Part shown: piece after piece, positions 1 through 22,746 of the stretch | How positions within the stretch are numbered: the first letter of the stretch is position 1 | Layout of the letters: every line of letters begins with the position of its first letter | Virus record (IMG/VR): IMGVR_UViG_3300031673_000385 | Location: 1 to 27,310 of that record | Source of the DNA: a virus | Lineage: Duplodnaviria; Caudoviricetes | Direction: 5' to 3' (one strand) | DNA: 27,310 nt | The notes under the pieces: model-generated | Database searches by the model: none | Told to the model about the DNA's origin: nothing | Seen by the model: the letters and a program-made list of their open reading frames with translations, nothing else | Translations under genes and position numbers: made by a program

Positions 1-810
1 GATCGACTTCAGTTGCTGCGGCGAATCCAAGTTGAAGGTCTCGCCAGCGATGTCCCAAATTCTTTTCTTCTCGCTGCGCGCTAGCTTCGAATACTTCTTG
101 AAGTTGAGCTTGCAGAACTCGCGATCAGCGTAGATCCCGTTATCCTCCATGTCTGCAACGAACGGGACGAGCGCGGTATCCGTTTCGAATGGCGTCCTGA
201 ACTTGGTAGTGCAGCCGACGCGGAACTGTAACGCAAGCCGCAGCGTATGATCCAAATCCTTTTCAAGGTAGCAGCTCATCACGTCAGGGTGCTGAGCGTA
301 ATAGTCTTCGTAGGTCGGTTCAGGCGCGTCGTCATGATCCCAACCTTCGTTGCGATAGTGCTTGCGCCGTGCGCGTCGCTCTTGCGAAAGCCATTCCGTA
401 ATCAAGTGGTCTTCGGTATACTCCTCCTTAAAGTATCGCTGCGCAAGCCAATCAAGCGAGAGCCTTGAATACTCGTCATGGAGCACGGTCATGTTCATCG
501 TGCACCACCACGGACCGCGCGGCTTGAGGTATATAGCTCGCAACATTCTGATTTCGAACTTAGCGTTATGCGCGACTTTGATAACGGATTCGTCTTCAAT
601 GTCGTTCATGAACTCGCGAAGCTTGGGATGGTCAGCGCCAAGAATATCATCGGCCTTGGGCGCGTTGCCACGCATATCGAACTTCCAAGTACGGCCTTCG
701 CCTTCGCGTTGGAACCCGATCAAGAACGGCGTATGACCCTTCTCAGGATCAAGGCCGTTGGTCTCTAGATCAACGACAAGCAGCAGACCTGAGCCGAGCG
801 GATCAGCCAC
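1..810 (-). CDS. polA: Family A DNA polymerase, N-terminal part (3'-5' exonuclease domain and start of polymerase domain); runs off the window start
   Basis: Not in the ORF track; translated by hand from GTG at 810: MADPLGSGLLLVVDLETNGLDP (ExoI DxE) ... KVAHNAKFE (ExoII) ... YLEKD (ExoIII YxxxD) ... PFVADMEDNGIYAD ... GETFNLDSPQQL. Open to base 1. Confidence 0.93.
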   Translation of the reverse strand, partial: MADPLGSGLLLVVDLETNGLDPEKGHTPFLIGFQREGEGRTWKFDMRGNAPKADDILGADHPKLREFMNDIEDESVIKVAHNAKFEIRMLRAIYLKPRGPWWCTMNMTVLHDEYSRLSLDWLAQRYFKEEYTEDHLITEWLSQERRARRKHYRNEGWDHDDAPEPTYEDYYAQHPDVMSCYLEKDLDHTLRLALQFRVGCTTKFRTPFETDTALVPFVADMEDNGIYADREFCKLNFKKYSKLARSEKKRIWDIAGETFNLDSPQQLKSI

Positions 811-1312
811 GCGCGTAGAACCCGAAGTCTTCGAGAGCTTCGAACGAGTCTCTAGGTACGCTGAGCGAGTCATTGGCTTGGTCCCAGATTATCACATGGA
901 CTCCGCTGTTCTTTAGCGCCGCGCGGCACGGCAGGCAGGGCGCTTTGGTCACGTACGCTATCGAATCGAGTACTGAAACGCCGATGCGCGCAGCGTTCGC
1001 GAGCGCGTTAACTTCCGCATGAACGGCGACGCAGTTCTCCATGCACCAGCCCTTGCGCTTGCCTTCGCAAACGCACTCCGGCTCTTTGGTCGCAGTCCCG
1101 TTATAGCCGGTCGAGATGATGTACTTCCCCTCGAGCGTTAGAATGCAGGCATGCTTTCGACCGATGGGACAGTTGCTCCAGCTCGCGACTTCAGCGGCGA
1201 AGCGTTGCATGCGATCAACGTGGCTGCCGAAGCTAGAGAGGCGTCGAAGAATCTGCACTTGACCTATTGAGCCTTCGTTGAACTGGAGATAGGTTTGCGC
1301 TTCGTCATTCAT
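803..1312 (-). CDS. dCMP deaminase family (zinc-dependent cytidine/deoxycytidylate deaminase)
   Basis: SNC..HACIL..IISTGYNG, HAEVNA and PCLPC motifs. Start placed at ATG 1312 (AAAGGA RBS; ATGA overlap with the upstream stop). Confidence 0.92.
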   Translation of the reverse strand: MNDEAQTYLQFNEGSIGQVQILRRLSSFGSHVDRMQRFAAEVASWSNCPIGRKHACILTLEGKYIISTGYNGTATKEPECVCEGKRKGWCMENCVAVHAEVNALANAARIGVSVLDSIAYVTKAPCLPCRAALKNSGVHVIIWDQANDSLSVPRDSFEALEDFGFYARG

Positions 1313-1524
1313 CGTGTTTCCTTTGCTCTCATTCGCTTGGCCTTCTGATTGCACGCGTTGCTGCAGTACTTCGACTGTCGTCGACGCCCGCCAGGAATGC
1401 GAGAGGAGATCGTCATGACTTCAAAGCATACTTTGCACGGCCGCAGCTCGATTCGTATTAGCTGCGCGGGAGCTTGAACTAGCGCAAAGGTAGGCTTAGA
1501 CTTATCGTTTCGTATACACCGCAT
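1309..1524 (-). CDS. Small zinc-finger protein (CxxC...YCSxxC, CGNR-like)
   Basis: CKVC...RQSKYCSNAC with a basic tail; its stop overlaps the deaminase start. Confidence 0.65.
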   Translation of the reverse strand: MRCIRNDKSKPTFALVQAPAQLIRIELRPCKVCFEVMTISSRIPGGRRRQSKYCSNACNQKAKRMRAKETR

Positions 1525-1999
1525 GGATAGTCCCTTCTGCGTTCAGTTGCTTAAGCCGCTCGATCTGCAGGAAGACTGGAATGCGGTTCTTGTCGTCTGC
1601 AAGCAACGGAAAGAGCGACGGCCCCGACGCCAACAGAACAGGCTCAGTCGTAATGTTCCAGCAGTGAATAACATGGCGGAAGAAGTAGAACGTCTTCGCG
1701 CCGCCCAAGATCAGAACCTCTTCGTCCACGCTGCAACTGAGCGCATGCTTTAGAAGATCCTCGGAGTGCGTGCTGTTACGGCCGGAGTAGAGCAAGACCC
1801 TGGAGTTGGCGACCAAGCGAGTCTTTGTTGACGCAGAGAAGCCGTTCCAAGTATTCGCGCCGACGATTGAGAGCTGCGACTGCTTAACCAGCTTCCAGAA
1901 CTTAGCCTTGTCTTCGCTGCTCGTCCAGCCGCCGTGCTCAATGCTATTCGGCTTTCCAATTCGTCCATCCAAGCTAACCACTATACTTGCGCTAATCAT
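1502..1999 (-). CDS. Dihydrofolate reductase family protein
   Basis: VVSLDGRIG, W..EDKAKF (catalytic Asp position), IVGANTW (cf. MGRKTW), VLILGG; directly downstream of the TS-fold gene. Confidence 0.85.
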   Translation of the reverse strand: MISASIVVSLDGRIGKPNSIEHGGWTSSEDKAKFWKLVKQSQLSIVGANTWNGFSASTKTRLVANSRVLLYSGRNSTHSEDLLKHALSCSVDEEVLILGGAKTFYFFRHVIHCWNITTEPVLLASGPSLFPLLADDKNRIPVFLQIERLKQLNAEGTIHAVYTKR

Positions 2000-2834
2000 T
2001 CACGCCCCCTATGATTGCAATCCCCCTATGAGACTTGGGTGGATTGAACTTCAGATAGTCAGCCTCGACTACGCGATGCAAATCAAATACTAGCGTTGGC
2101 TCGCCTTGGATCGCGCGCTTCCATTCTGCCGTGCAAGACGGAACTATAGAATCAGCTGACGCGATACCAGTTCGAGTTGAAAACTTCTCGACCATCGCGT
2201 GAGCTGCAAAGTACTGATTGGCGTAGACGTGCGCGTTGGCCACCGTCCAATAGATCGCGCCGATCTTCAAGTTGAGATAGCGAGCGATCCAAGCGCGGAT
2301 GATCGCGATGCCGGCGACGTCATGCGGAAGTCCGAAGTAGAGGTCAGCGCTTCGTTGGAGCACCGTCGTATGCAGCGTTTCACCGATAACCGAAAGCGCC
2401 ATGGACGAGATGCAAGGCCGATGCGAACGGCCAATGTCGTCGCGCTCGAAGAGCTGGAAGACGATGGACTTCTTGGTGCGATCATGTCGTAGCGCAGCGA
2501 CGCCCTTAAGCAGCAAGTCAATGCCATCGCCGCGGCCGCGAAATGTCGGACCCCAATTCATCGACTGCGGGAATTTACTCCAAGCGTTGAAGCCGTAGGT
2601 CTTCATGAAGTCGGGATCGCGGCCGCCGCTCATATGCCAAACCGCTTCGGCGCAGAACCACTTGGTGTTGATGTTCCGCAGCGAGACGAGCGGCAGTCCG
2701 CCGCCATGGCCGCAGCTAAACGAAAGGCCGGGACGCGCGCGGTAGTAGATGCCGGTCCGTTGGTCTTGCTCCTCTTTTGCTGCGAGCACGAAGTCGAGTA
2801 GCTCGACATAGACTCCATCAAACGCGGTATTCAT
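1992..2834 (-). CDS. Thymidylate synthase / dCMP (hydroxy)methyltransferase-family enzyme, predicted to be dCMP-specific
   Basis: QRTG, AEAVW, catalytic PC, QRSAD and AHVY motifs. The specificity position is Asp (GLPHD), as in T4 dCMP hydroxymethylase, not Asn (GLPFN) as in ThyA. Confidence 0.9.
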   Translation of the reverse strand: MNTAFDGVYVELLDFVLAAKEEQDQRTGIYYRARPGLSFSCGHGGGLPLVSLRNINTKWFCAEAVWHMSGGRDPDFMKTYGFNAWSKFPQSMNWGPTFRGRGDGIDLLLKGVAALRHDRTKKSIVFQLFERDDIGRSHRPCISSMALSVIGETLHTTVLQRSADLYFGLPHDVAGIAIIRAWIARYLNLKIGAIYWTVANAHVYANQYFAAHAMVEKFSTRTGIASADSIVPSCTAEWKRAIQGEPTLVFDLHRVVEADYLKFNPPKSHRGIAIIGGVND

Positions 2835-3436
2835 TCTGACACCTCTATCAGCGTTTCTTCAATCATCACTTTGATAACTTCAGCGACTAGAACGCCTTCG
2901 TCGGCAGGCTTATTAACCGTTAGAATATCAAGCCCTTCCGCGCCAGAAAGCAACCTAAGCTGATTCGTGTTTGCGTAGAACTTGTCGACGTCTCTTCGCT
3001 CGAGCGCATGCGTTGGCTTGCGATGGCGATACCTCAGAACGAATAGCAGATCGACCAGCGGCCAATGCTGAGTTTCGGTAAGCCCAATCCAACGATCCGT
3101 ATGCGCTGCGAGTTCAGCCGATGCGCTGCCGTAGCACCAGTCGCTAACGGGGTGCAGTCGATCAAGCAGAATCAGCGACTCGTTCCACTTGCTATAGACC
3201 AGTTCAAGCGCCTCTTCCGCTGCCGCAGCCATCAGATAGCGGCGGGTCATTTCGTTGCCGTCGTGGTCGCGCGCGAGATCATACGCGGCGCGGCCCGTCT
3301 CTGATGCTCTGTAATCAACCACAGTAACAGGAACGCCCTGCCGCAGAAGCTCTACCGCGACTTGATTAAGCAGCGTCGTCTTCCCAACCCCATCAGGGCC
3401 TTCGAATGCGATAATAGATCGAGCTCTGAAGTTCAT
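2831..3436 (-). CDS. Thymidylate-kinase-family dNMP kinase
   Basis: IAFEGPDGVGKTT P-loop and LLDR..S..CY motif. Start at ATG 3436 (AAGGAG RBS; ATGA overlap with the primase stop). Confidence 0.85.
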   Translation of the reverse strand: MNFRARSIIAFEGPDGVGKTTLLNQVAVELLRQGVPVTVVDYRASETGRAAYDLARDHDGNEMTRRYLMAAAAEEALELVYSKWNESLILLDRLHPVSDWCYGSASAELAAHTDRWIGLTETQHWPLVDLLFVLRYRHRKPTHALERRDVDKFYANTNQLRLLSGAEGLDILTVNKPADEGVLVAEVIKVMIEETLIEVSE

Positions 3437-5955
3437 CTCTTCTCCTTGGTCAGAACTGTGAGCATGCGGCCTGAAACCATCTTCTTTGATCGCGTCCAAC
3501 CTGCATTGGAAAGCATAGACTCCGCGTCAACAAGGCGGACTCCAAGCTGTCTAGCATTGCTCCAAGGACAGCGCTGACCGAGATGCTTTGCAAGGATCTG
3601 AAAGTCTGTCAAGAGCTGGTTGGCTTGCGCGCGTAGGTAGGTCTTGCCATCGCGCTCAGTAATCTTGACGCGCGTATCGCTTAGCGATCCATGCCGATCG
3701 ACTAGCGTCTCCAGATAGTAGAGCAGCTCGCTCGTTGATTGCTTGCGTTCTGACGCGCTGCGGTCTTGCTCTTCCAGCCATTCACTTACCAAATCGCGAG
3801 CGGTGTTCCACTTGTTTGACGGTCTGAACGCGAAGCAGATATCTGAGCAGATCGCCATCAGCGCCCAATGGTCGTTGAAGCGTTCCATTGAATGGTGCGG
3901 GAATTCGTGCGCGATCCTTGAAACTTCGCCGCTCTTGATTCGCGGTAGGATGGATTGCTGCGCGAGCTTCAACCAGCCTGATAGAATCTGATGGCGCTGC
4001 TCTGATGCTCGCTTGACTTCTCGGTACTCATGGAAGTTCGCGCGGCCATACTTCTCGAGGTCAAGCTCAATCTCAATGGTCCGCGCGATCAGTTCGTTTC
4101 TGGAGAAGGGCTCGATACCGTTGGTCCCAATCAAGCAGTTGACTTGCTCCGTTACGATGGCGCTGTCAGTTCCTGACGCGCGCTTCGTCTTTGATCCGCC
4201 GGTCGCAGCGGTCAGCAGGAAGTCTTCAAACGGCTGCGTTAGGTTGCGAGTCTCGACGTTATCAAACAAAAGGATTGGGTGCGACTGAGCCATCGCGTAG
4301 CTACTTGCGATCGTGCTCGCGGAGTGCGACATGACTTCTTCGCCATAGATCAAGTGCGAAATCAACTTGGTCGCAGTGGTCTTGCCGCCGCCGCTGCTCG
4401 CAACGAATCGAAGGATTGGCTTCGCCCGAATATACTCCCTGAAGTACAGGCTCATGATCCAACACATCGAGAGATAGCGGTACGAATCGTCGCAAGCGAT
4501 ATTCCTACCAACGATGGACCACGCCGCAGCAACAGCTTCGTTTGGCTGCGCGGACTTGATCCACTTAACCGCAGCATGCTCGCGCGGCGTATCAATCAGC
4601 ACTGAGTGCGTCTGCACTGAGTCGTCCAGCATCGTGACCGACTTCGGCGTCGCGCAAAGCGTTCGGCCCTTGCCCGCGTAGAGGTAAACGCTTTGGTTAT
4701 GATAGAGCGACCAAGCGCCCATCGTGACTTTGCTTGCGCGCCCTAGCGCAGCTGACTTCAAGTGGTTGATAACGAAGCGACCGGACGACGTTGCTGAATT
4801 GATTGCAGGATTGATTCGCGACAGATGCCCAAGGAAGTGAGCGCCGCCGACAGCCATTGATCCACTGCCCGCTCGCTCCGCGTAGTAGGATTCGCCGTCG
4901 TTGCCGCGAAAGAATCCACCGCGTGATTCAAGCAGCGACAGAACCAGCTCCGCGCGCTCGACCATTTCGTTTTCAGCTTCTGAAGTCTCGAACTCCAACG
5001 CAACGGACGCGACGGGCTTAGCCTCTTCTTCGCCAACGCCTGACGCTGCTTGTCTCAGCAGCTCAGCATTGCCGCCGCCGCCATGCAGCCAATCGCCCAA
5101 GTCTTTGCCTTTCGGCCAAGGCGGGGGGTCAAGCAGAATCACTCGCGCGCCTGCTTTGGTTAAGGCCTTGGCTCGCTTGCGTGCGCCCGCCAATCCAGCC
5201 TTATCGTTGTCCGGCACGACTAGAACCTTCAAGCCTTTGAACTTCTTCGCAAGCTCAGCGGGCATCGTGTGCGCGCCGCTCGTAATGGTCACGGCGTTGA
5301 TCCCGCGGTCGATAGCTAGGATCGCGTCTAGCTCGCCTTCGCAGAGCACGACCACGCTGCGCTTGAGCGAGCTCAACGGATAGATCCGCGCGCCTCCAAA
5401 GCCATCGCCCTTCTTGCCATAGCTGAAGATCTTGGGCGCGCCTGCTTTTCTGCGACCCAGTAGATCGTGCTTGCGAACGTCGACGACAAGGCCTTGCTCG
5501 TTCTCAATTGGAATCCAAAGGCGATCGCCAGCCCAGCCTAGCCTATGCCGCAACACGGCAGCTTCAGAAATACCGCGCTTTTTCTTGAGTCGTCCAATCA
5601 AGAGCGGATTATTCGCGAGCGCTCCATGAGCATGCGATACATTGGAGTCGGGGACTAGCTTCTCGACATGCTCAGTCCAGAGATGCTTAATTGCGTTGCG
5701 ATACGACAGGCCTAGCAAGTCTTGCGCTAGCCCAACTATCGTCGACGACTTATAGCCGCAGCCTTGGCAGAACGAGCGGCCGGCGTTGTCAGGGTCTACT
5801 CCAAACGATGGAGTGCTGTCGTTGCCGGACTCATGGCGCTCAGGGAAAGGGCAGCAGACGTTATCGCCGGTGGACGCGCCTTCAACCAAGTCATCGATAG
5901 CGTCAGTCAAGTTGATTCGACGCAGTAGTTCCTTGCTAATCTTTTTGGAGTTCAT
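3433..5955 (-). CDS. Primase-helicase (CHC2-type Zn finger + TOPRIM + P-loop helicase)
   Basis: CPFPERH..D.TPSF..FCQGCG zinc finger; CEGELDAI, PDND.AG and KDLGDW TOPRIM motifs; ASSGGGKTT Walker A and ILLFDN Walker B. Confidence 0.9.
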   Translation of the reverse strand: MNSKKISKELLRRINLTDAIDDLVEGASTGDNVCCPFPERHESGNDSTPSFGVDPDNAGRSFCQGCGYKSSTIVGLAQDLLGLSYRNAIKHLWTEHVEKLVPDSNVSHAHGALANNPLLIGRLKKKRGISEAAVLRHRLGWAGDRLWIPIENEQGLVVDVRKHDLLGRRKAGAPKIFSYGKKGDGFGGARIYPLSSLKRSVVVLCEGELDAILAIDRGINAVTITSGAHTMPAELAKKFKGLKVLVVPDNDKAGLAGARKRAKALTKAGARVILLDPPPWPKGKDLGDWLHGGGGNAELLRQAASGVGEEEAKPVASVALEFETSEAENEMVERAELVLSLLESRGGFFRGNDGESYYAERAGSGSMAVGGAHFLGHLSRINPAINSATSSGRFVINHLKSAALGRASKVTMGAWSLYHNQSVYLYAGKGRTLCATPKSVTMLDDSVQTHSVLIDTPREHAAVKWIKSAQPNEAVAAAWSIVGRNIACDDSYRYLSMCWIMSLYFREYIRAKPILRFVASSGGGKTTATKLISHLIYGEEVMSHSASTIASSYAMAQSHPILLFDNVETRNLTQPFEDFLLTAATGGSKTKRASGTDSAIVTEQVNCLIGTNGIEPFSRNELIARTIEIELDLEKYGRANFHEYREVKRASEQRHQILSGWLKLAQQSILPRIKSGEVSRIAHEFPHHSMERFNDHWALMAICSDICFAFRPSNKWNTARDLVSEWLEEQDRSASERKQSTSELLYYLETLVDRHGSLSDTRVKITERDGKTYLRAQANQLLTDFQILAKHLGQRCPWSNARQLGVRLVDAESMLSNAGWTRSKKMVSGRMLTVLTKEKR

Positions 5956-6069: not shown

Positions 6070-7104
6070 CTACGCAGCCAACTTGGCCTTGATACTCTTC
6101 GCAAGCGCTTTGGGAGTAACGCCCTTGATGATCTTCACACCAATTGCGGCAGCCAGAATCTTCAGCCGCCCGAGCGGGAGGGCAGCACCTTCATCAACCT
6201 TGCAAAGGTCGACGAGAAGTTTCTTCGGCTGCTTATCAACCGCGAAACCGAACGCTTCAAGGCACTCGCCTGCGGTTGCTTTCGTGAAGTCTTTGGACGC
6301 AGCGGCAGAACTCTCGGGCCATTCCGCCTCATCGCCTTCCTCTTCGTCCGCCTCTTCTTCGCCAGCCTCTTCGTCCTCAGTCTCTTCTTCGTCGTCGTCG
6401 CTCTCTTCTTCGCCTTCCGCATCGTCGTCGTCGTCGTCGTCGTCGCTCTCTTCTTCTTCATCCTCCTCTTCGTTTTCGTCGTCCGCGTCCGCAGACAGAA
6501 TCGTCAGCGCGCTGAACTTCTTGGAGCTGACCTTGCCGTCGTCCTCTTCGCAAACCGCGGTCTCTTCGTCTTCGTCGACTTCGATGACGGTTGCTTCAAC
6601 GACTGCACCCTTGCGCTTGAAGGTCACGCGAGCTCCATCCGAGACTTCGCTTGACTCCTCTTCCTCTTCGTCGTCGTCGTCGTCGCCGTCCTTGGAGACT
6701 AGCTTGTTCACGTAGAGGTTCTGGAAATCGTTTGCAGTTCGCAGGACGCCTTCGAATACGCGGCCATTCATTTCCTCGCAAACGGTTCCGTCAAGCAGCT
6801 CACCGATATCTGCAGGCACCTTGATTCCAAGCCGTCCAAGCTTGCGCTTGAACCAGCCCATGTTGTCAGGCGTCTCCAGATTATCGAACTGCGAACCCTT
6901 GACGCCTACGTACTCTTCGTCGCCGCCAACGATTTCGTAAACAGCCGAAACCATGGGCTTGCCGGTGCCGCTCACTTTGAAAACCGCCTTGGCGATCTTG
7001 AACTGATACGTCCCATCGGGCGCGTCCAACTGATTGCCGCCGGTATCCTTTGCGCCCTTCCACATCTTCTGAAGGGTTTTCTGTTCCTTTGCGCTAACGC
7101 TCAT
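6070..7104 (-). CDS. Phage single-stranded DNA-binding protein (DUF669-like) with long acidic tracts
   Basis: APDGTYQFKI...SGTGKPMV...YEI N-terminal pattern, position next to the Sak4-like ATPase, long D/E runs. Confidence 0.7.
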   Translation of the reverse strand: MSVSAKEQKTLQKMWKGAKDTGGNQLDAPDGTYQFKIAKAVFKVSGTGKPMVSAVYEIVGGDEEYVGVKGSQFDNLETPDNMGWFKRKLGRLGIKVPADIGELLDGTVCEEMNGRVFEGVLRTANDFQNLYVNKLVSKDGDDDDDEEEEESSEVSDGARVTFKRKGAVVEATVIEVDEDEETAVCEEDDGKVSSKKFSALTILSADADDENEEEDEEEESDDDDDDDDAEGEEESDDDEEETEDEEAGEEEADEEEGDEAEWPESSAAASKDFTKATAGECLEAFGFAVDKQPKKLLVDLCKVDEGAALPLGRLKILAAAIGVKIIKGVTPKALAKSIKAKLAA

Positions 7105-12816: not shown

Positions 12817-13890
12817 ATGCCGGCACCCACCAACAGCGAGCGCGGTTACGAGCGCAGCGCGCCGGTTATCCGCCGCGATGGCCGCGGGCATGAGCAGAAC
12901 GCGTTCCGCGTCCGCTGCGAATGCGGATACCCCCTCTATCTTTCAGGCCTTGGGATCTCGCGCCGCACGTGCACAAGTTGCCGCCGCTCTTGGAATATCC
13001 GCTTTATCTATGCAGACCAGCCCGCGGTCATGACGCTGAGCGGGATTCGCACTTCGCGTCGCACTGTGTCGCGCCCCCGCCGCTCCGCCGCTGCTCAGAC
13101 GCAGACGGCAGCGATCGCGCGCCTCTTCCCTGAGTTGAGCACTGAAGGTCGCGCCTTTGGCGTTGAGCTTGAATTGATTGGCGATCGCTCGCGAATGCAG
13201 ACCGCCATAACCGGCAGCGGCATTCCCGCAGCGGTTGAAGGCTACAATCATTCGCTGCGAGACCATTGGAAGATCGTGACGGACGCTAGCGTGTACGGCG
13301 GCAGCGAAGTGGTTAGCCCCAAGCTGAGCGGCGAACAGGGCTTCGCGCAGCTTTATAAGGTTTGCGAAGCAACGACCAACGGCGGCGCGACTATCAACGC
13401 AAGCTGCGGTTTGCATGTCCACTTGGACGCGCGCGAGATGAGTGAGCAGAGCTACTGCCGGTTTTTCGCAGCCTACGCACTCTTTGAAGAGGCGATCAAC
13501 GGATTCATGCCGCGCAGCCGCCATAACAATCAGTACGCGCACCCCATCAACAGCGCGCTTCGCGGACAGACTTTCAGCACGCGAGCAGCATGTCGCAATC
13601 TTCTGAGCTCGCACGCTGGCCGGTATTGGACAGTCAACCCCCGCAGCTTCGCCGTTCATGGAACGATTGAAGTCCGCCATCACAGTGGAACGACTGAGTG
13701 GGGCAAGATCAGCAATTGGGTTAAGCTGCTCCTCTCCATGATGGACGCGGCGACCGCGATGAAGGCGTTGCCCGCGACAGGCACGCTGACTGATCTTCTG
13801 GAGTGGAGCGGCTGCACCGCGGACGTTGCTAGCTTTTTCAAGATGCGAACTTCGCACTTCGCTGCGGACGGCGCCCGCCGCTCCGCTTAA
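12817..13890 (+). CDS. Putative amidoligase (COOH-NH2 ligase, Amidoligase_2 family) with N-terminal Zn ribbon
   Basis: FGVELE, WKIVTDAS, EVVSP, NASCGLHVH and GTIEVRHHSGT motifs; N-terminal CECG...CTSC; TAAGGAG RBS. Confidence 0.88.
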   Translation: MPAPTNSERGYERSAPVIRRDGRGHEQNAFRVRCECGYPLYLSGLGISRRTCTSCRRSWNIRFIYADQPAVMTLSGIRTSRRTVSRPRRSAAAQTQTAAIARLFPELSTEGRAFGVELELIGDRSRMQTAITGSGIPAAVEGYNHSLRDHWKIVTDASVYGGSEVVSPKLSGEQGFAQLYKVCEATTNGGATINASCGLHVHLDAREMSEQSYCRFFAAYALFEEAINGFMPRSRHNNQYAHPINSALRGQTFSTRAACRNLLSSHAGRYWTVNPRSFAVHGTIEVRHHSGTTEWGKISNWVKLLLSMMDAATAMKALPATGTLTDLLEWSGCTADVASFFKMRTSHFAADGARRSA

Positions 13891-13913
13891 CTTTCAAGAC
13901 CAAGGAGAAGACC

Positions 13914-14162
13914 ATGCTGAACTATGTTGACAAGTCAGACGGGCAGATTCTAGCTGCCGAAACTCACAAGGAAATCATTGAGCTGCTCCGCAAGGGAGCG
14001 CTTGATCCGCTGAACAGCTTGGAAGACTTCATGGATGACGTCTCAGACCGCGCGGAACTTGACTGGTTTGCGCGACCGCAGGGCATCAGTGAAAACTTCA
14101 GGAGCTTTGTTGACGCGCTCGTCAAGGCGGGCCTGTTGGAGAAGCTGCATGACGAATCGTAA
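13914..14162 (+). CDS. Hypothetical acidic protein
   Basis: AAGGAG RBS; lies between the amidoligase and the GGCT. Confidence 0.7.
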   Translation: MLNYVDKSDGQILAAETHKEIIELLRKGALDPLNSLEDFMDDVSDRAELDWFARPQGISENFRSFVDALVKAGLLEKLHDES

Positions 14163-14718
14163 GCGCAAGCGCGTGCATAAGCGGAAGCGAAAGCAGCCGC
14201 AGCAAGAGCAGCCGCGCACGCTGTACTTTTCCTATGGCTCCAACATGGATCATTCGCAGATGGCGGATCGCTGCCCGCGAGCTCGCTTCGTCCAAAGGAA
14301 CGCGCTGCCGGATACCAAGCTGGTATTCCGCGGCGGGCTTGCGGACATAGACGCGGCGGAAGGCGAGTATGCTTACGGCGCGATCTGGTCCATCACTCCA
14401 GAGTGCGAGCGGATCTTGGACATCTATGAGGGAGCGCCGCGCCTGTACGTCAAGGAGTGGCTGCGCGTTCGCCAAGAGGGAACCATCAAGCGCATGCTCG
14501 TCTATGTGATGCGAAACAAGAAGATCGCATTGCGCCCGCCGCCGAGCAGCTATCTCGCTGGAATTGCGAGAGGCTACGCGGAGAGCGGTTGGGGCGAGCT
14601 CATCGACACAGTTTTGGATCGCGCGGTCGCGAATGCCCACAAAGTGTGGGATATGACCGATCGCGTGGGGCAGCTCGTTGGACGGGCTGCGCGACAAAAG
14701 AAGGAAAGCAAGTCATGA
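14149..14718 (+). CDS. Gamma-glutamylcyclotransferase (AIG2/GGCT-like)
   Basis: LYFSYGSNM..QM..RCP and LDIYEG..Y motifs, PPSSYL..I..GY; start trimmed to ATG 14149. Confidence 0.9.
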   Translation: MTNRKRKRVHKRKRKQPQQEQPRTLYFSYGSNMDHSQMADRCPRARFVQRNALPDTKLVFRGGLADIDAAEGEYAYGAIWSITPECERILDIYEGAPRLYVKEWLRVRQEGTIKRMLVYVMRNKKIALRPPPSSYLAGIARGYAESGWGELIDTVLDRAVANAHKVWDMTDRVGQLVGRAARQKKESKS

Positions 14719-15607: not shown

Positions 15608-15869
15608 ATTGGACGCTGCTCGCTCAGTTCGCGATTGCTATTGGTCTCAGCTTCGCTTGGGGTTGGAGGCTAGGGGTGATGGTCTATGTCTTCAATCACG
15701 CCTGCGAGCATAACCTCTATGAAGGGAGGGGAAAGCCTTGGGGCTAATGCTTGGCAGCGGCATTGGCATCGGTAGGTGCTGATATACGAGCAGGGCCGCC
15801 ATTCTACTAGCGGATAGGCCAAGGGAAAGCTGGACTGGGCTCCTCAGAATTGGGGGGCCCTTTCCAATT

Positions 15870-16510
15870 TGACGCTGCCGACATTGCCGACATCGGCTGA
15901 CACCGGCTCTTGGGCCTTCTGAGCGCTGCGTCGCGATTGACACCGCGCGTGCGAGCTGACATTCTGGAGTTGGGCTTGAGCGCTGCTCCCCTAGCCCTAT
16001 CTGGATTTGACATTGCTAGCGCAGCTCCTCTAGCGCTATTCCGGCATTGACACCGATTGACATCGCTGACATCGCGATGTCAAGGCCTACATTGCCGGTT
16101 TGGCCTATGTAGCCGATGTTGAATTTGACATTGCTAGCGCTGCGGCCTAGCTCGCCCTAGCAGCGGCCAATCCGATTTGACATCGATGTCGCTGCGCACG
16201 TCGCCCTACATCGCGATGTCAACCGATACGCTGCGCGCTGCTAGCCCTAGGGCCTGTGTCAGTCCGTGTGCAGCGATGTAGGCCCTACCAAATCCCTGTA
16301 GGCCCGCAGAGCGGAGTTGCGCGAATGTGCAACTTGCCAAATGTCTGTGAGCTTGCAGCGCCCGCCGCAATGCAGCCGGCTAAGTTGCCTTGACATAGCG
16401 ATGTCTGCCCCAACACCGCGATGTCAGCCGATGTCAGCCGATACATTCGATGTCAAGGCCTACATCGCCCTACACCGCGATGTCTCCGGATACGCTGCGC
16501 GCTGCTAGCT
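15870..16510. repeat. Cluster of TGACAT/ATGTCA half-sites and TGACATCGCGATGTCA-type palindromes
   Basis: Perfect 16-bp palindrome at 16067-16082; variants at 16179, 16206, 16391, 16411 and 16470; longer duplications within the region. Confidence 0.85.
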
Positions 16511-16581
16511 CCGCAGCCGCTGTTGGCCCGCGTGCGCCGTTGTGCCGCCAGAGCCTCCGGCCTGGGCAGCGCCCCCGGGAA

Positions 16582-17000
16582 GTTGCCTAGTTACTAGGTA
16601 GCCGTTGCCTGCTTACCAGGTGGGTGTTGCCTGCTTACCAGGTAGCTCACCAGGTCGGCTAGTTGCCTGCTTACCAGGTAACCGTTGCGCGTCTACCAGG
16701 TAGCTTGAGCCGGTTGCCTGTCTACGAGGTAGCCGTTGCCGCTTTACTAGGTAGCTCACCTGGTGTGCCCGTGACAGAGTTGCCTGCTTACCAGGAGACC
16801 GTTATGCGGAGTTGCACGCTTACCAGGAAGGAGTTGCCGCTCTACCAGGTGACGGTTGCCTATCTACCAGGAAGACACTGGAAGTTGCCTGGGTGTGTTC
16901 GCGTGCTTGCCTGTTCGAGACCCTGGAGTTGCCTGCTTACTAGGAAGACATCGGGAGTTGCCTAGGTGTCTCCTAGTGACGAACGCGTGGTTGCCTATGT
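16582..17000 (+). repeat. Iteron-like array, consensus GTTGCCTGCTTACCAGGT, frequent 22-bp period
   Basis: GTTGC units start at 16582, 16604, 16626, 16662, 16684, 16713, 16735, 16779, 16811, 16833, 16855, 16884, 16928, 16957 and 16990. Confidence 0.9.
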
Positions 17001-17091
17001 CAGCCGTGTCGAGCCGTGTCGAGAGCAGCCCGGGGCGTTTCACGGTCTTAACGAGCTTTTTCACGGTCTTAATCGAGCTCTCTGCCCAGGA

Positions 17092-17181
17092 AAGCCTAAT
17101 GATTTCAGGTAGTTAGCCTAGGGCCTGGCTCGACCAGGCAAGCCTGTATTCCACAAAAGCTAATGAAATCAGGTAGTTAGC
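17092..17181 (+). promoter_or_regulatory. Two copies of an IHF-site-like motif upstream of terS
   Basis: TGATTTCAGGTAGTTAG (17100) and TGAAATCAGGTAGTTAG (17164); the second matches WATCARNNNNTTR. Confidence 0.5.
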
Positions 17182-17735: not shown

Positions 17736-19077
17736 GCAGCGTGCGATCGCGCATCAGCTCTCGACGCCGGCACGGATGGCGCTTTGGGACGAGCTCAAAA
17801 CCTGGAGTAGGTGGGCGCGACCAAAGCAGCTACCGCCGGACGGCGAATGGTTCTATTGGCTCATTCAGGCCGGGAGAGGTTGGGGCAAGACCCGCACCGC
17901 CGCGGAATATATTCGCGGGCGTATTGACCGCGGTGAGTGGCGAACGGTCAACGTTGCTGGGCCTACATGGATGGACGTCATGGATACCCAAGTCAACGGA
18001 AGTCCCAGCGCTCCCGGCCTTCTCGATATCTGGCCGCCTCACAAGCGACCAGTTCTAAAGCTCTCCAGTGCGAATCCCCATCTGCTTTGCTGGAACGGTG
18101 CGGTCATTCGACTGCGCGCAGCCAAGGAGGCTGAGCGATTCCGCGGTACGCAAGCCGAGGGGGCCTGGATTGACGAGATCGACTCTTGGGCGCCGAACCG
18201 TATGAAGCCGGCCGAAGCGTTGGCGCTCTTCGAATTTGGTATCCGACTTGGGAGCGATCCTCGAATCGTCGCGACCTCTACTCCAAAGCGTGGACGATTG
18301 GTTGCGAAGCTGCTCAAACGCGGCGATTGCGTAGTGTCTCAGGGCGCGATGCAGGAGAACGCTGCGAATCTCAGCGCGAAGTTCATCCGCGCGGTGGAGA
18401 CTGAGTACGGGGGCACGCGACTTGGTCGTCAGGAGATTGAAGGCATTCTGCTCGAAGACGTTGAAGGCGCGCTCATTACCCTTGACATGATCGCCGACAA
18501 CCGCCTTGAAGCTAAGCTGCGACCCAAGCTCGGCGACTATGACAGCATATGCGTTGGAGTCGACCCGTCTGGTACCGAAACCGGAGACGCTAAGGGAATC
18601 ATCGCCTGCGGGAAGATTGGCAAGGTCGGCTACGTAATCACTGACAAGTCGACCCATGCAGGGCCTGACGGTTGGGGGCGCGCAGTCGTCCAGCTCTACT
18701 ACACGCTGCAAGCCGATCGCGTCGTAGCGGAGGTGAACTATGGCGGCGACATGGTGCAGCACGTAATCCATGCAGCCGCAGACAAGATGGGAGTCCCGCG
18801 CCCGCGATTCGTCAAGGTCACCGCATCGCGTGGCAAGCATGTTCGAGCGCAGCCGATTGCAGCGCTGCACGAACAGGGCCGCGTCAAGTACTGCGGAAAC
18901 TTTCCCCACCTTGAAGACGACATGACCGGCTTCACGGATTCAGGTTGGGAAGGATCGGGCAGTCCCGACCGCGGCGACGCGTGCGTTTGGTCGCTGACGA
19001 ACCTGCTCGTTCGAAACACTGGACTGTCGCCGTCGGATCTGTACGGCGATGATGACGAAGAAGAGGAGGCGGCCTGA
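17677..19077 (+). CDS. terL: Terminase large subunit
   Basis: Q motif (PKQ), AGRGWGKT Walker A, WIDE Walker B, TSTP coupling motif, GVDP and SPDRGDA nuclease motifs. Confidence 0.95.
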   Translation: MSRMQTDSLVSSLLLLPEVEQRAIAHQLSTPARMALWDELKTWSRWARPKQLPPDGEWFYWLIQAGRGWGKTRTAAEYIRGRIDRGEWRTVNVAGPTWMDVMDTQVNGSPSAPGLLDIWPPHKRPVLKLSSANPHLLCWNGAVIRLRAAKEAERFRGTQAEGAWIDEIDSWAPNRMKPAEALALFEFGIRLGSDPRIVATSTPKRGRLVAKLLKRGDCVVSQGAMQENAANLSAKFIRAVETEYGGTRLGRQEIEGILLEDVEGALITLDMIADNRLEAKLRPKLGDYDSICVGVDPSGTETGDAKGIIACGKIGKVGYVITDKSTHAGPDGWGRAVVQLYYTLQADRVVAEVNYGGDMVQHVIHAAADKMGVPRPRFVKVTASRGKHVRAQPIAALHEQGRVKYCGNFPHLEDDMTGFTDSGWEGSGSPDRGDACVWSLTNLLVRNTGLSPSDLYGDDDEEEEAA

Positions 19078-21203
19078 TGGCGCTATTGGATCGGCTTCGC
19101 GGACCTAGCAAAGCAGCTCAAGCAGCGCAGGCACTCGCGTTTGAAGAAGGCTTTGCTCGGGCGATTGCAGCGATTCCGTACCATAGCCGCACCGATCGGT
19201 TCGGAACAGGCCTTGGAAACCAGCCCAATACGAAGACGCTGCTACGCGAGTCCAAAGGCGTAGCCGATACTGCGACGCGTGCGATTGCCAATCGGCTAAG
19301 CATGCTCAACCCGCAAGTGATGGTCAGCCGTCGCGATCGCAAGGGAACGGTCATTGACGAGATCATTGACGACAACCCGCTGAAAATGCTACTTGATCGC
19401 CCGCATCCGAACTATTCGAGAGCTCAGATGCTGCGATTGGTCGGTCAGTACGTCGTCACGTGCGGCGAAGCCTATTGGCAGAAGGTTGGCTCGGGCCTTG
19501 GCATTCCGGTTGAGCTCCACCCCGTTCCGCCTTGGTTGATGGAGCCGATCATCGAACAGAATATCATCGTCGCATACTGGGTGACAGACGGTGATGGCGG
19601 CCAACGCGCAGTCGACGCAAACGAATTCATCCGATTCTTCTACGCTGATCCTGAAGATCCTTGGAATGCAGAGGGATATCTCGCCCCGTCCGCAGTGACA
19701 GCCGACTCTCTGAAGTTCGCCGGTCAGACGATGCGCGAGCACTACATGAACAACGCCACGCCCAAGACTGCGCTTGAAGCAGGCGAGCAAGCGCAGCCGT
19801 TCACGAAGGACGAAAAGGAATCGTTCCTTACCCGTTGGCGCAAGCGATACAACAATCGGGTGGGAACGAGCGATGGATTGCCGGTCATTCTGCCCACGCA
19901 CTACAAGCTCATCCAAATGGCGATGGAGAGCGGCGCGGACATCACTCCGCTGCTTGAGTACTGGTCCAACATGCAGCTCATGGACTTTGGCGTTCCGAAG
20001 TCTATCCTTGGCATGGTAGTCAGCGGCGATCGTTCAAGCGCTGAAACCAACCAGTATGTCTTCGATCGTCATACGATTCTGCCGATTTCAACGATGATTG
20101 AAGACGCGCTCACGTTGCAGCTCGCACCGGACTTTGATCCCGCACTCTTCGTCAAGTTCGAGAAGTTCGTGTCGGACGACAAGGCATTCGAGTTGGCGCA
20201 AGAGACCGCGGACATCACCAATAAAGTTCGCTCGCCTAACATGATTCTTGAAGCGCGCGGCGAAGATCCTGTTCCGTGGGGCGATCGACCGCCTGCGAAG
20301 GTTGGCGAGACCTGGTACGAGCCTGAGATCGAGGATGAGCTACTGCCCGCTGACGATCCCGGTGCAATCTCAGATCCTGAAGTCGACGACGACGAAGTTG
20401 ATCTTGAGTTGGATAAAGACGACGACGGCGATCGCATGCGAGCAGCAGAGTCCTACTTCAGCAAGGCTCGTGCGTGGGAGCGTCAAGTCAACGCAGAGCG
20501 GACGTTTGTACCTGCGTTCACGCGTGAGATGCGGAAGATCTTCCTACTTCAGAAGAACGAAACGCTCAAGAAGCTGGAAGCGACTAAGCCGCGCTCGCGA
20601 GTGACCGCTGACGAGATCTTTGACGACGAGGCATGGGACAAAATCTTCAACGCACGCGTCGAGCCGATTCGCCGATCCGCTACCAACGCAGCTGGAAGCG
20701 AAGCGATCGCAGGTATCAGCGATGATCTGGAGTTCATATTCAACACGAAGGTCACCGCGCAGCTACGAAAGCAAGCGGGCGCACTGATTACCAACGCGAA
20801 TCGTACGACACAGAAGGCTATCGCTCGCGAGCTTGCTACCGGTAACTCGGCAGGCGAAGGCGTTGGTCAGCTCGCTACCCGCATCCGTCGGGTGTTCGAT
20901 GTTCGACGCCAGCAAGCTCGCACGATTGCACGCACTGAAGTTCTGAAAGCTACGCAGACAGGCCAGCTCGCAGGCTTTGAACAGAGCGGCGTAGCTCGAA
21001 AGCAATGGAATACCAGTTTGGATGCAGACGTTCGCGACTCGCATCTGATCGACGGCCAAGTCGTTGACCTTGATGAGTCGTTCACTCTGACTGACGGCGA
21101 GCGAGCCGACGCGCCCGGCATCGGCGAAGGCGGCAGTTCTCTCTCTGCGAGCAACTCAATCAATTGCCGGTGTTTTGTTACGCCGGTTGAGGAGAAGAAG
21201 TGA
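19077..21203 (+). CDS. Portal protein fused to a MuF/SPP1-gp7-like minor head domain
   Basis: Portal motifs (GEAYW, ELHPVPP, FGVPKSILG, SPN..LEARG.DP), an acidic linker, then ARTIARTE, KQW...VRDSH..DGQ and INCRC. Confidence 0.9.
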   Translation: MALLDRLRGPSKAAQAAQALAFEEGFARAIAAIPYHSRTDRFGTGLGNQPNTKTLLRESKGVADTATRAIANRLSMLNPQVMVSRRDRKGTVIDEIIDDNPLKMLLDRPHPNYSRAQMLRLVGQYVVTCGEAYWQKVGSGLGIPVELHPVPPWLMEPIIEQNIIVAYWVTDGDGGQRAVDANEFIRFFYADPEDPWNAEGYLAPSAVTADSLKFAGQTMREHYMNNATPKTALEAGEQAQPFTKDEKESFLTRWRKRYNNRVGTSDGLPVILPTHYKLIQMAMESGADITPLLEYWSNMQLMDFGVPKSILGMVVSGDRSSAETNQYVFDRHTILPISTMIEDALTLQLAPDFDPALFVKFEKFVSDDKAFELAQETADITNKVRSPNMILEARGEDPVPWGDRPPAKVGETWYEPEIEDELLPADDPGAISDPEVDDDEVDLELDKDDDGDRMRAAESYFSKARAWERQVNAERTFVPAFTREMRKIFLLQKNETLKKLEATKPRSRVTADEIFDDEAWDKIFNARVEPIRRSATNAAGSEAIAGISDDLEFIFNTKVTAQLRKQAGALITNANRTTQKAIARELATGNSAGEGVGQLATRIRRVFDVRRQQARTIARTEVLKATQTGQLAGFEQSGVARKQWNTSLDADVRDSHLIDGQVVDLDESFTLTDGERADAPGIGEGGSSLSASNSINCRCFVTPVEEKK

Positions 21204-21795: not shown

Positions 21796-22746
21796 ATGCC
21801 GCGATCATTCGCAAGAGTCAATAGCTTCAACAGAGAGTCGGGGACTTTCGATATGACGCTCGCCACCGAAGGCGAAGCGAGCGACGGCGACATCCTCGAG
21901 ATCGCTGGCGGAAGTATCCCGGCGCGCATGCCGCTGCTCATCTCTCATACAAACGATCCAACCCTGCAAGCGGGCTCGATTACCAACCCTATCAAGGTTG
22001 CGGGCTCGCGACGCAAGCCACCGCAGTTGACGGCGACAGGCGAAATCGAAATGGCTGGCGAAGGTCCGAGCTCAGAGATCCGTCGGGACATGGCGCTGAT
22101 GATCGAGAAGGGACACGTCAACGCAGTCTCGATTCGGTGGGATCCAATCGAGTCGACGCGACGGGTCAACCTGCCGAGCGATCACGCCTACTTCGTCGAC
22201 GCTGACTCCGAGAAGGATTGGCGCAAGCGCTACGGACTCTATCACTCCAAGTGGCGAGCGCTCGAAGGCTCAGTCGTCAGTCTCGGTGCGGATCCGGCTG
22301 CGCTCATTCGCTGCGCGGACGCGGCGGAGTCGGACATTGCCGAAACCTTTTGGCGACACCTAGCCTTCGAAGCCGACCGACCGACAGAGGGAAGCGTCTG
22401 GACTCGCTCCGCAGCGCAGGACGATACGCTTGCGGCGGACGACGACGACACCGTGCTCGCGAAGATCTTGGGCGTTGAGCTCTTGATTGCGCCGGCGCAG
22501 CGGGATTCGTTGCAAGCGGCCGTCGACACTCTGGAGTCGGAAGTCCTTGACAAAGTAAACGCGTTGCTCAAGGGGCAGCGTGAGATTCAGAAGCGCGGAC
22601 CAGCGCCAACGAAGGGAGGCAGCGGACTTGCTGCCTCAGCAAGCGTCTTCGCAGACCTTCAGCGAGAGCTGACGCGCAGCGAGGATCGCATGCGTACTCG
22701 GATGAAGAACATCCTTGACGCAGCTACTGGAAAGGTATCACGATGA
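21796..22746 (+). CDS. HK97-family prohead protease
   Basis: PLLISH, AVSI and LEGSVVSLGADP motifs; TAAGGAG RBS before ATG 21796. Confidence 0.88.
   Translation: MPRSFARVNSFNRESGTFDMTLATEGEASDGDILEIAGGSIPARMPLLISHTNDPTLQAGSITNPIKVAGSRRKPPQLTATGEIEMAGEGPSSEIRRDMALMIEKGHVNAVSIRWDPIESTRRVNLPSDHAYFVDADSEKDWRKRYGLYHSKWRALEGSVVSLGADPAALIRCADAAESDIAETFWRHLAFEADRPTEGSVWTRSAAQDDTLAADDDDTVLAKILGVELLIAPAQRDSLQAAVDTLESEVLDKVNALLKGQREIQKRGPAPTKGGSGLAASASVFADLQRELTRSEDRMRTRMKNILDAATGKVSR

Follow-up and report, generated by a model that had tools for sequence, protein, structure and literature searches.

The window analysed here is a stretch of 27,310 nucleotides from a tailed phage (IMG/VR record IMGVR_UViG_3300031673_000385, positions 1 to 27,310), and it begins with a replication operon in which a thymidylate synthase (TS)-fold enzyme is encoded next to a nucleotide kinase, a dihydrofolate reductase (DHFR)-like protein, a deaminase and a family A DNA polymerase (PolA). 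This module probably makes 5-methyl-dCMP (5m-dCMP) from dCMP, giving DNA that contains 5-methylcytosine (5mC) and, by deamination, dTTP. A system of synthase, deaminase and DHFR is already known from phages Xp12, PaMx74 and AXL1, and pairs of synthase and deaminase were tested in preprint 10.1101/2024.12.05.627091; what is new is the lineage of nine distinct loci, all of which carry aspartate at the position equivalent to 177 of E. coli ThyA (Asp177). Gene content, gene order, folds, residues and position in the tree were observed directly. The genes of the module, with the primase that precedes it, are the following:

3433..5955, minus strand: primase-helicase of 840 aa with Toprim and PHROG primase matches, upstream member of the same overlapping operon
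2831..3436, minus strand: thymidylate kinase (TMK)-like P-loop dNMP kinase of 201 aa, candidate 5m-dCMP kinase (PF02223, E 5e-7)
1992..2834, minus strand: ThyA-fold enzyme of 280 aa, predicted dCMP C5-methyltransferase (PF00303, E 1e-26; residue map, model and tree)
1502..1999, minus strand: DHFR-fold protein of 165 aa, predicted to recycle dihydrofolate (PHROG 316, E 5e-5; fold search and residues)
1309..1524, minus strand: open reading frame (ORF) of 71 aa with four cysteines (CxxC-x20-CxxxC; motif only)
803..1312, minus strand: PF00383 Zn-dependent deaminase of 169 aa, candidate for 5m-dCTP to dTTP (or dCTP to dUTP) conversion (PF00383, E 7e-13; PF14437, E 2e-8)
1..873, minus strand: N-terminal part of PolA with the 3'-5' exonuclease (PF01612, E 1e-7); the start may be GTG 810

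In the window record (G000), the plus strand encodes terminase, portal and HK97 capsid proteins. The replication operon is read from the minus strand and has the order Sak4-like protein, single-stranded DNA-binding protein (SSB), primase-helicase, kinase, TS, DHFR-like protein, 71-aa ORF, deaminase and PolA. The last seven genes overlap each other by 4-23 bases (up to 71 with the first ATG of PolA): 4 nt between primase and kinase, 4 nt between kinase and TS, 8 nt between TS and DHFR-like gene, 23 nt between the latter and the 71-aa ORF, 4 nt between this ORF and the deaminase, and 8 nt between deaminase and PolA if PolA starts at GTG 810 and not at the alternative ATG 873. An earlier note on this DNA had described a gap-free operon running from the kinase to PolA, and all six ORFs were indeed found on the minus strand in that order with overlapping neighbours. 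PolA is truncated by the window edge; it has 666 aa in locus L004 (PF00476, E 9e-63) and is supplied at this length by a sister record, G001, which is 99.8-99.96% identical to the window. Since G001 bridges the two ends of the window and the window bridges those of G001, the two close into a circle of 39,164 bases, and the gene inventory is therefore probably complete, though CheckV rates the window and G001 at 47% and 64%, respectively. The longest recorded contig with the operon protein has 39,401 bases.

The TS carries the motif RSADLYFGLPHD, in which Asp172 (codon 2319-2321) corresponds to position 177 of E. coli ThyA; this motif and those of the E. coli (RSCDVFLGLPFN) and T4 (RSNDVVFGFRND) enzymes were verified as quoted in the earlier note. 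Its catalytic and binding residues are C141, E63, R161, S162, D164 and D172, and unusual residues are H138 at position 143, I142 at 147, W94 at Tyr94 and K122 at Arg126 (the window residues are given here in their own numbering; position numbers are otherwise those of E. coli ThyA). Compared with E. coli ThyA, R21, E58, W61, W80, C146, Q165, R166, S167, D169, G173, H207 and Y209 are kept, and, as in the canonical ThyA-FolA pair, a DHFR lies adjacent, whereas W83F, Y94W, R126K, R127S, L143H, H147I, F176H and N177D are changed. The predicted model (pLDDT 87) has the TS fold, with canonical ThyA as best PDB matches, and the protein scores below every NCBIfam ThyA cut-off.

Those parts of previous reports on which we draw indicate that Asp177 selects dCMP and that 177 and 147 are the positions most associated with contigs of modified cytosine, 147 being the second most discriminating (PMC8670742); that an acid at 143 marks hydroxymethylases (PMC6400193, PMC13326640), D145N in T4 abolishing hydroxymethylation, so that a carboxylate is needed there (PMC6400193); that D169N is the mark of 5-hydroxylases (PMC13326640); and that Lys126 together with Ala167 favours CMP, restoration of Ser shifting the preference to dCMP (PMC5175136). 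The window TS has neither an acidic residue at 143 (H138) nor D169N (D164). It lacks the T4-type hydroxymethylase signature (D/E three residues before Cys and S/T-x-Y at T4 positions 94-96; here H138 and M92-N93-W94), the MilA-type CMP hydroxymethylase pair Lys126 and Ala167 (Lys122 is present, Ser162 is kept) and the canonical ThyA signature Asn177/His147/Leu143 (D172, I142 and H138). Because of the published rules for 177, 143 and 169, we class it as a predicted dCMP enzyme that is neither a T4-type hydroxymethylase nor a hydroxylase.

Relatives of the TS were found by exhaustive search and pattern scans; word-index protein searches with the TS and with the deaminase gave no match besides the query itself, and a search of GTDB genomes gave one weak unrelated match only. 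Among the best 150 of the 3,243 hits of the exhaustive search, position 177 was Asp in 101 and Asn in 47, and 29 of the 30 best hits had Asp177. Within these 101 Asp177 hits, position 143 was Asn, as in Xp12, in 56, Asp in 12 and His in 3, and Trp94 was found in the window TS only, five close relatives having Thr and others Ala or Ser. Asp177 occurs in several separate TS lineages, including other viral groups (L020-L025, L028, L029, L051, L052; L114, L115, L123, L129; L110) that carry it on an otherwise ThyA-like site, e.g., Leu143 with Tyr or His147, several of them with a DHFR or a kinase and deaminase nearby. Two close homologues, P0014 and P0047, have Ser or Asn in place of the catalytic Cys146, also lack Asp177 and are probably inactive or repurposed TS-fold proteins.

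In our main tree, a 30-row IQ-TREE mixture tree, the window TS fell within a clade of 10 (96/91) and the Xp12 enzymes formed a separate clade (100/100); the window clade, the Xp12 clade and ThyA were parted by a 96/99 branch from seven acid-143 enzymes, including the long-branched T4 gp42 and RB69 gp48. A tree with ThyA, T4 gp42 and Xp12-type enzymes had been proposed in the earlier note, and it sets the window TS apart from T4 gp42 but also outside the Xp12 clade. His143, present in two of the nine clade loci, is nested among Asn143 members, which account for the other seven. A quick 42-row tree joined the window clade with Xp12 at a Shimodaira-Hasegawa-like approximate likelihood ratio test (SH-aLRT) value of 91, unstarred.

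Clade alignments were used for scans that gave 30, 25 and 54 loci, mostly distant, and from these we retained nine: the window, L010, L011, L012, L043, L044, L045, L048 and L046/L049. L047 shares its contig with L011, and L046 and L049 have an identical TS sequence, so that each pair entered the count once; L039-L042 were left out as the window's own phage, and the regular expression used to pick residue 143 missed some distant loci, all outside the counted clade. A DHFR-like gene lies directly behind the TS in seven of the nine, PolA lies downstream in eight, a Vsr T:G endonuclease gene within 4 kb of the TS in six, and a DUF5664 or MazG-like pyrophosphatase gene was found in four. A primase is conserved upstream of the TS in relatives, directly upstream in L010-L012, L043-L045 and L048; the slot before the TS holds DUF5664 (three loci), an unnamed helical protein (three), the TMK-like kinase (the window and L043 only) or nothing (L044). 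The deaminase is inside the operon in the window, L043 and L044, and elsewhere in the genome in the long records G002-G004. Locus L043 (primase, kinase, TS, DHFR, deaminase, Vsr, PolA) is the closest match to the window, without the Cys-rich ORF. All five long records have a single TS and a deaminase, and no ThyX, dUTPase or C5 DNA methyltransferase was found in any of them. The slot before the TS, which elsewhere holds DUF5664, encodes in L010:5952-6377, L046:176-616 and L048:2229-2675 a protein of 140 aa that matched nothing in Pfam, PHROG or NCBIfam and is a candidate for an unrecognised NTP pyrophosphatase.

The Vsr genes lie between the Asp177 TS cassette and PolA:

L010:7763-8191, L012:9381-9860, L043:5642-6235, L045:3289-3804, L048:3526-3990 and L049:445-921: Vsr

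Vsr is described in abstracts as repairing the T:G mismatches that arise from deamination of 5mC. Because the long records hold no C5 DNA methyltransferase, Vsr stands there without a Dcm-type partner, which agrees with a methyl product of the synthase. The co-occurrence of Vsr and Asp177 synthases where the genome has no DNA methyltransferase is of interest in itself, and our literature search found no published report of it. The Vsr slot of L011 is occupied by an Endonuclease VII-like ORF, and Xp12 and AXL1 carry an HhH-GPD gene near the TS in place of Vsr.

The earlier note had taken the adjacent DHFR to imply methylation. DHFR stands beside the TS in four of five Xp12-group phages and in none of eight acid-143 loci (L005, L006, L150, L153, L155, L158, L159 and L160; L150 and L159 seem to come from a single phage). 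Adjacency is a weak argument when taken alone; T4 carries a DHFR elsewhere in its genome. Together, the DHFR beside the TS, Vsr, the tree and residues 143, 147 and 169 support the methyl-dCMP reading. One acid-143 locus, L005:7815-9744 in another viral record, has a Glu143/Asp177 TS (RSNDAYFGLPHD) adjoining an aGPT-Pplase3/amino acid:DNA transferase gene and is a candidate cytosine hypermodification locus.

Among known systems, Xp12, whose DNA is cited as fully substituted with 5mC (PMC9206674, PMC6449724), offers the nearest comparison. Pyrophosphatase, TS, dCMP deaminase and DHFR lie in one cluster in Xp12, PaMx74 and AXL1, and the Xp12 cassette (also found in RcSimone-Hastad and, without DHFR, in JWX) resembles the window in Asp177, Phe83, a residue other than His at 147, a non-acidic 143, a PF00383 deaminase and a DHFR in the same cluster, and a PolA replicase. 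In contrast, the window TS forms a separate clade (27-28% identity) with His143/Ile147/Trp94/Lys126 where Xp12 has Asn/Pro/Tyr/Arg, a TMK-like kinase takes the place of the PRA-PH pyrophosphatase, the gene order is TS-DHFR-deaminase, and the genome has about 39 kb as against 58-64 kb in the Xp12 group; Pfam and profile searches of the window and G001 gave no HhH-GPD gene. Xp12 gp56 was considered as a kinase homologue and rejected (BLASTP E 7.6), no kinase being found in the Xp12 cassette. The window module would work like that of Xp12 but outside the Xp12 TS clade and without the usual pyrophosphatase. The mSCD modules (10.1101/2024.12.05.627091; MetaGPA, PMC8670742) are alike in that a PF00383/PF14437 deaminase lies no more than 3 kb from PolA and a TS with Asp177, as that screen demanded, and differ in having PRA-PH, missing in the window, as a top neighbour; deaminase selectivity is described there as polyphyletic. 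T4 gp42 and RB69 gp48 (5-hydroxy-dCMP synthase) share the TS fold, catalytic Cys and Asp177 with the window TS, which differs from them by having no D/E143, no S-x-Y at T4 94-96, D169 kept and no accompanying glycosyltransferases, and by its place across the 96/99 branch. The novelty that the earlier note had expected for both lineage and gene set therefore stands for the lineage, with its own TS clade, and not for the gene set, which is the cassette of Xp12, PaMx74 and AXL1, with biochemistry in the preprint. As this preprint mined IMG/VR for the same TS and deaminase arrangement, the window contig may be in its set.

Published rules and homologues allow us to infer the substrate and product of the synthase, the substrates of kinase and deaminase, and the modification of the DNA. 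In the proposed mechanism, a small lytic-type tailed phage would make 5m-dCMP before replication. The ThyA-fold enzyme would bind dCMP via Asp172, Cys141 would attack C6, and a methylene from methylenetetrahydrofolate followed by hydride transfer would complete the methyl group, releasing dihydrofolate for recycling by the adjacent DHFR. The TMK-like kinase would phosphorylate 5m-dCMP, a host NDP kinase would complete the triphosphate, PolA would incorporate 5mC into the genome, and the deaminase would convert part of the 5m-dCTP to dTTP, so that no dUMP-specific synthase would be needed. The purpose would be resistance to restriction enzymes blocked by 5mC. According to 10.1101/2024.12.05.627091, a TS is found close to 104 of the 149 deaminases of modified contigs, with PolA as a top neighbour, 5mdCMP was produced by five of seven Asp177 synthases taken from beside such deaminases, and mSCD-B5 deaminates 5m-dCTP and not monophosphates, a dTTP route being proposed. 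The conversion of dCMP to 5m-dCMP claimed in the earlier note is hence the best-supported reading, while its deamination step would move from the monophosphate to the triphosphate.

Regarding the partner genes, the kinase shows Atlas features of 0.95 and a TM score of 0.81 to PF02223 clusters, and a PF02223 gene fills the same operon slot in L043. The kinase is not unique to the window, because its combination with an Asp177 TS and a deaminase recurs at the unrelated loci L097, L098, L110 and L155. The DHFR-like ORF gave only a sub-threshold Pfam match (RibD_C, E 0.003) besides the PHROG one; its predicted model matches solved DHFRs, best that of Thermotoga (E 7e-11, TM 0.74), and it keeps equivalents of E. 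coli W22/D27/F31/T46/G95-G96 (W25/D30/F34/T50/G99-G100), which are common to FolA and the AXL1 DHFR. The 71-aa ORF, which the earlier note called a Zn finger, has the Cys motif but no match in Pfam, PHROG or NCBIfam, and hits only unnamed viral and bacterial clusters in the Atlas; in L043 and L044, the two closest operons, DHFR directly abuts the deaminase, and the ORF is probably an accessory insertion and not a pathway enzyme. The Zn site of the deaminase is intact (HAE, PCxxC) and its place beside an Asp177 TS makes it a candidate mSCD, its selectivity being likewise a candidate property. Together with those of L043 and L044, the window deaminase makes up a separate, long-branched clade (SH-aLRT 99). 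Identity to the enzymes of the Xp12 group is 25-27%, and the substrate could be 5m-dCTP, dCTP or both. A search of IMG/VR with deaminase alignment A6 returned 21 loci, none in this clade besides the window's own record.

Several observations weigh against the methyl-dCMP reading. Pfam searches (PRA-PH on G001 and window ORFs) and relatives' profiles run over 1,263 six-frame segments gave no PRA-PH, MazG, DUF5664, dUTPase or Vsr in either the window or G001, whereas Xp12 and four of the nine clade loci do have a pyrophosphatase. This matters because full replacement needs dCTP to be kept from the polymerase; without a recognisable dCTP pyrophosphatase or Vsr, full substitution is therefore less certain in this phage. 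The absence is one of recognition, since many small ORFs of the window and G001 have no family, and a dCTPase may be among them. In addition, two of the seven Asp177 synthases assayed in 10.1101/2024.12.05.627091 failed to yield 5mdCMP, and selectivity for 5mC was seen there in just 34 of 194 candidate deaminases that were soluble; JWX, in the Xp12 clade, and two of the nine window-clade loci have no DHFR; the 30-row tree leaves open how the window clade relates to Xp12 and ThyA; and the window TS has a low identity to the Xp12 group and carries odd residues, with Trp for Tyr94, Lys and Ser for Arg126 and Arg127, and a His143 found in 3 of the 101 Asp177 hits, Trp94 and Lys126 making the predicted product less certain. 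The word 'complete' in the earlier note thus goes too far, as the searches gave no enzyme that removes dCTP and the two closest operons have no Cys-rich ORF.

The genome signature was examined over 40-45 kb of each genome. C-containing 6-mer palindromes had an observed/expected ratio of 0.95 (534 of 562) in the window phage, 0.88 in Xp12 and 0.80-0.85 in relatives, compared to 0.48 in phiKMV, 0.53 in L5, 0.54 in T7, 0.63 in lambda and 0.80 in D3, the five unmodified controls. Such lack of avoidance agrees with protected DNA as a weak proxy with five controls; against it, D3 overlaps the relatives G002 and G003 (0.82 and 0.80). Palindromes of four bases gave no distinction between phages with modified and with unmodified DNA. 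CC/GG was depleted genome-wide in the window and G001 (rho 0.67; 0.88-0.95 in G002-G004, 0.91 in Xp12, 0.86-0.94 in controls, and a milder 0.81 in L043). The depletion was symmetric, both across codon junctions (0.59 for CC and 0.65 for GG) and in third positions that are synonymous, and CG and GC were elevated; a host signature, avoidance of protospacer adjacent motifs or a cost of adjacent modified C are possible causes.

The missing pyrophosphatase bears most directly on the possibility that dCMP is methylated but dCTP is not removed, the genome being partly or hardly methylated and the module serving mainly to make dTTP via cytosine, or the deaminase acting as dCTP sink. None of the three loci with an in-operon deaminase shows a pyrophosphatase, the inventory of the closed circle holds none, and the three deaminases are a clade apart. 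However, L043 (6.5 kb) and L044 (4.8 kb) are short contigs, L043 still has Vsr, an unrecognised dCTPase may hide among the small ORFs, and incorporation into DNA would agree with the presence of a dedicated kinase and with palindromes not being avoided, so that we consider this alternative unlikely. Ordinary thymidylate supply, in which a dCMP deaminase would give dUMP, TS would give dTMP, DHFR and TMK would follow, Asp177 would be tolerated and the DNA would be unmodified, has on its side four annotations that spell the textbook dTMP pathway, a TMK-like kinase, canonical ThyA as best structural match and the authors of AXL1, who read the same cassette in this way (PMC9206674). The AXL1 DHFR is reported to be functional, but AXL1 DNA resists 26 of 31 restriction enzymes, including most C-containing ones (PMC9206674). 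With Asp177 throughout the clade and in nearly all best hits, His147 lost, scores below the ThyA cut-offs and Vsr in relatives that have no DNA methyltransferase, this explanation is very improbable.

About as improbable, or slightly more so, is a product such as 5-hydroxymethyl-dCMP or another C5 adduct, for which the pocket of His138 and Trp94 would have to activate water in place of hydride transfer. His at 143 is polar and ionisable, unlike Leu, Tyr94 is replaced, and deaminases also lie beside the acid-143 synthases of L150, L153, L155 and L158; but T4 needs a carboxylate at 143, His143 is nested among Asn143 relatives, the tree parts the window TS from acid-143 enzymes, DHFR and Vsr are conserved, and no glycosyltransferase or hypermodification gene was found among the ORFs scanned.

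Within the methyl-dCMP reading, a pyrophosphatase-free variant shared by the window, L043 and L044 may tentatively be put forward, though we hold it rather doubtful. Here the deaminase clade would replace the dCTPase (on dCTP or both forms), the kinase would select 5m-dCMP, and His143/Trp94/Lys126 would be a new active-site solution. Equally speculatively, such a variant would replace all cytosine by 5mC with no need of a dCTPase, or else methylate the genome in part and to a tunable degree. In both cases it would run without Vsr, the T:G repair enzyme of most relatives, and this may be linked to the strong strand-symmetric CC/GG avoidance.

If right, the methyl-dCMP reading adds an uncultured soil-phage lineage to the phages with 5mC genomes and corrects a 'thyA-folA' annotation, the pathway itself being already in print. 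The new deaminase clade would be useful for screens of 5mC-sequencing enzymes, with the candidate 5m-dCMP kinase as a useful extra, and the natural active-site variants His143, Trp94 and Lys126 test the rules that distinguish methyl from hydroxymethyl products.

As for occurrence, more than half of the window's words occur in six of the eight listed runs; these six are labelled soil metagenome, and five are flagged as possible sources. One metagenome contig of run X2, which may be the source of this DNA, spans the whole window with one differing letter; runs X7 and X8 were rejected as further carriers (small shares in pieces of 150-250 bases), and there was no RNA dataset among the listed runs with window words. 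Window and G001 differ at 24 sites (15 transitions), too few for a C-to-T test; they lie mostly in two clusters, at 22320-22362 (13 sites) and 17140-17175 (6 sites), with only a handful elsewhere, and the clusters are possibly a recombined patch or an assembly-end artefact. Promoter and terminator scans of the window stayed at chance level. Elsewhere in the window, an SSB-like protein (6070-7104, minus strand) contains a very long acidic stretch of Asp and Glu and has a 3-base indel relative to G001. An amidoligase (PF12224) and gamma-glutamyl cyclotransferase (PF06094) gene pair (12817-14718, plus strand) is unrelated to the TS module, and a portal is fused to a Mu gpF-like head morphogenesis domain (19077-21203, plus strand). 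Between small plus-strand genes and the terminase genes, 15800-17100 holds no assigned ORF and shows repeated-looking short ORF translations; it is possibly a packaging or origin region.

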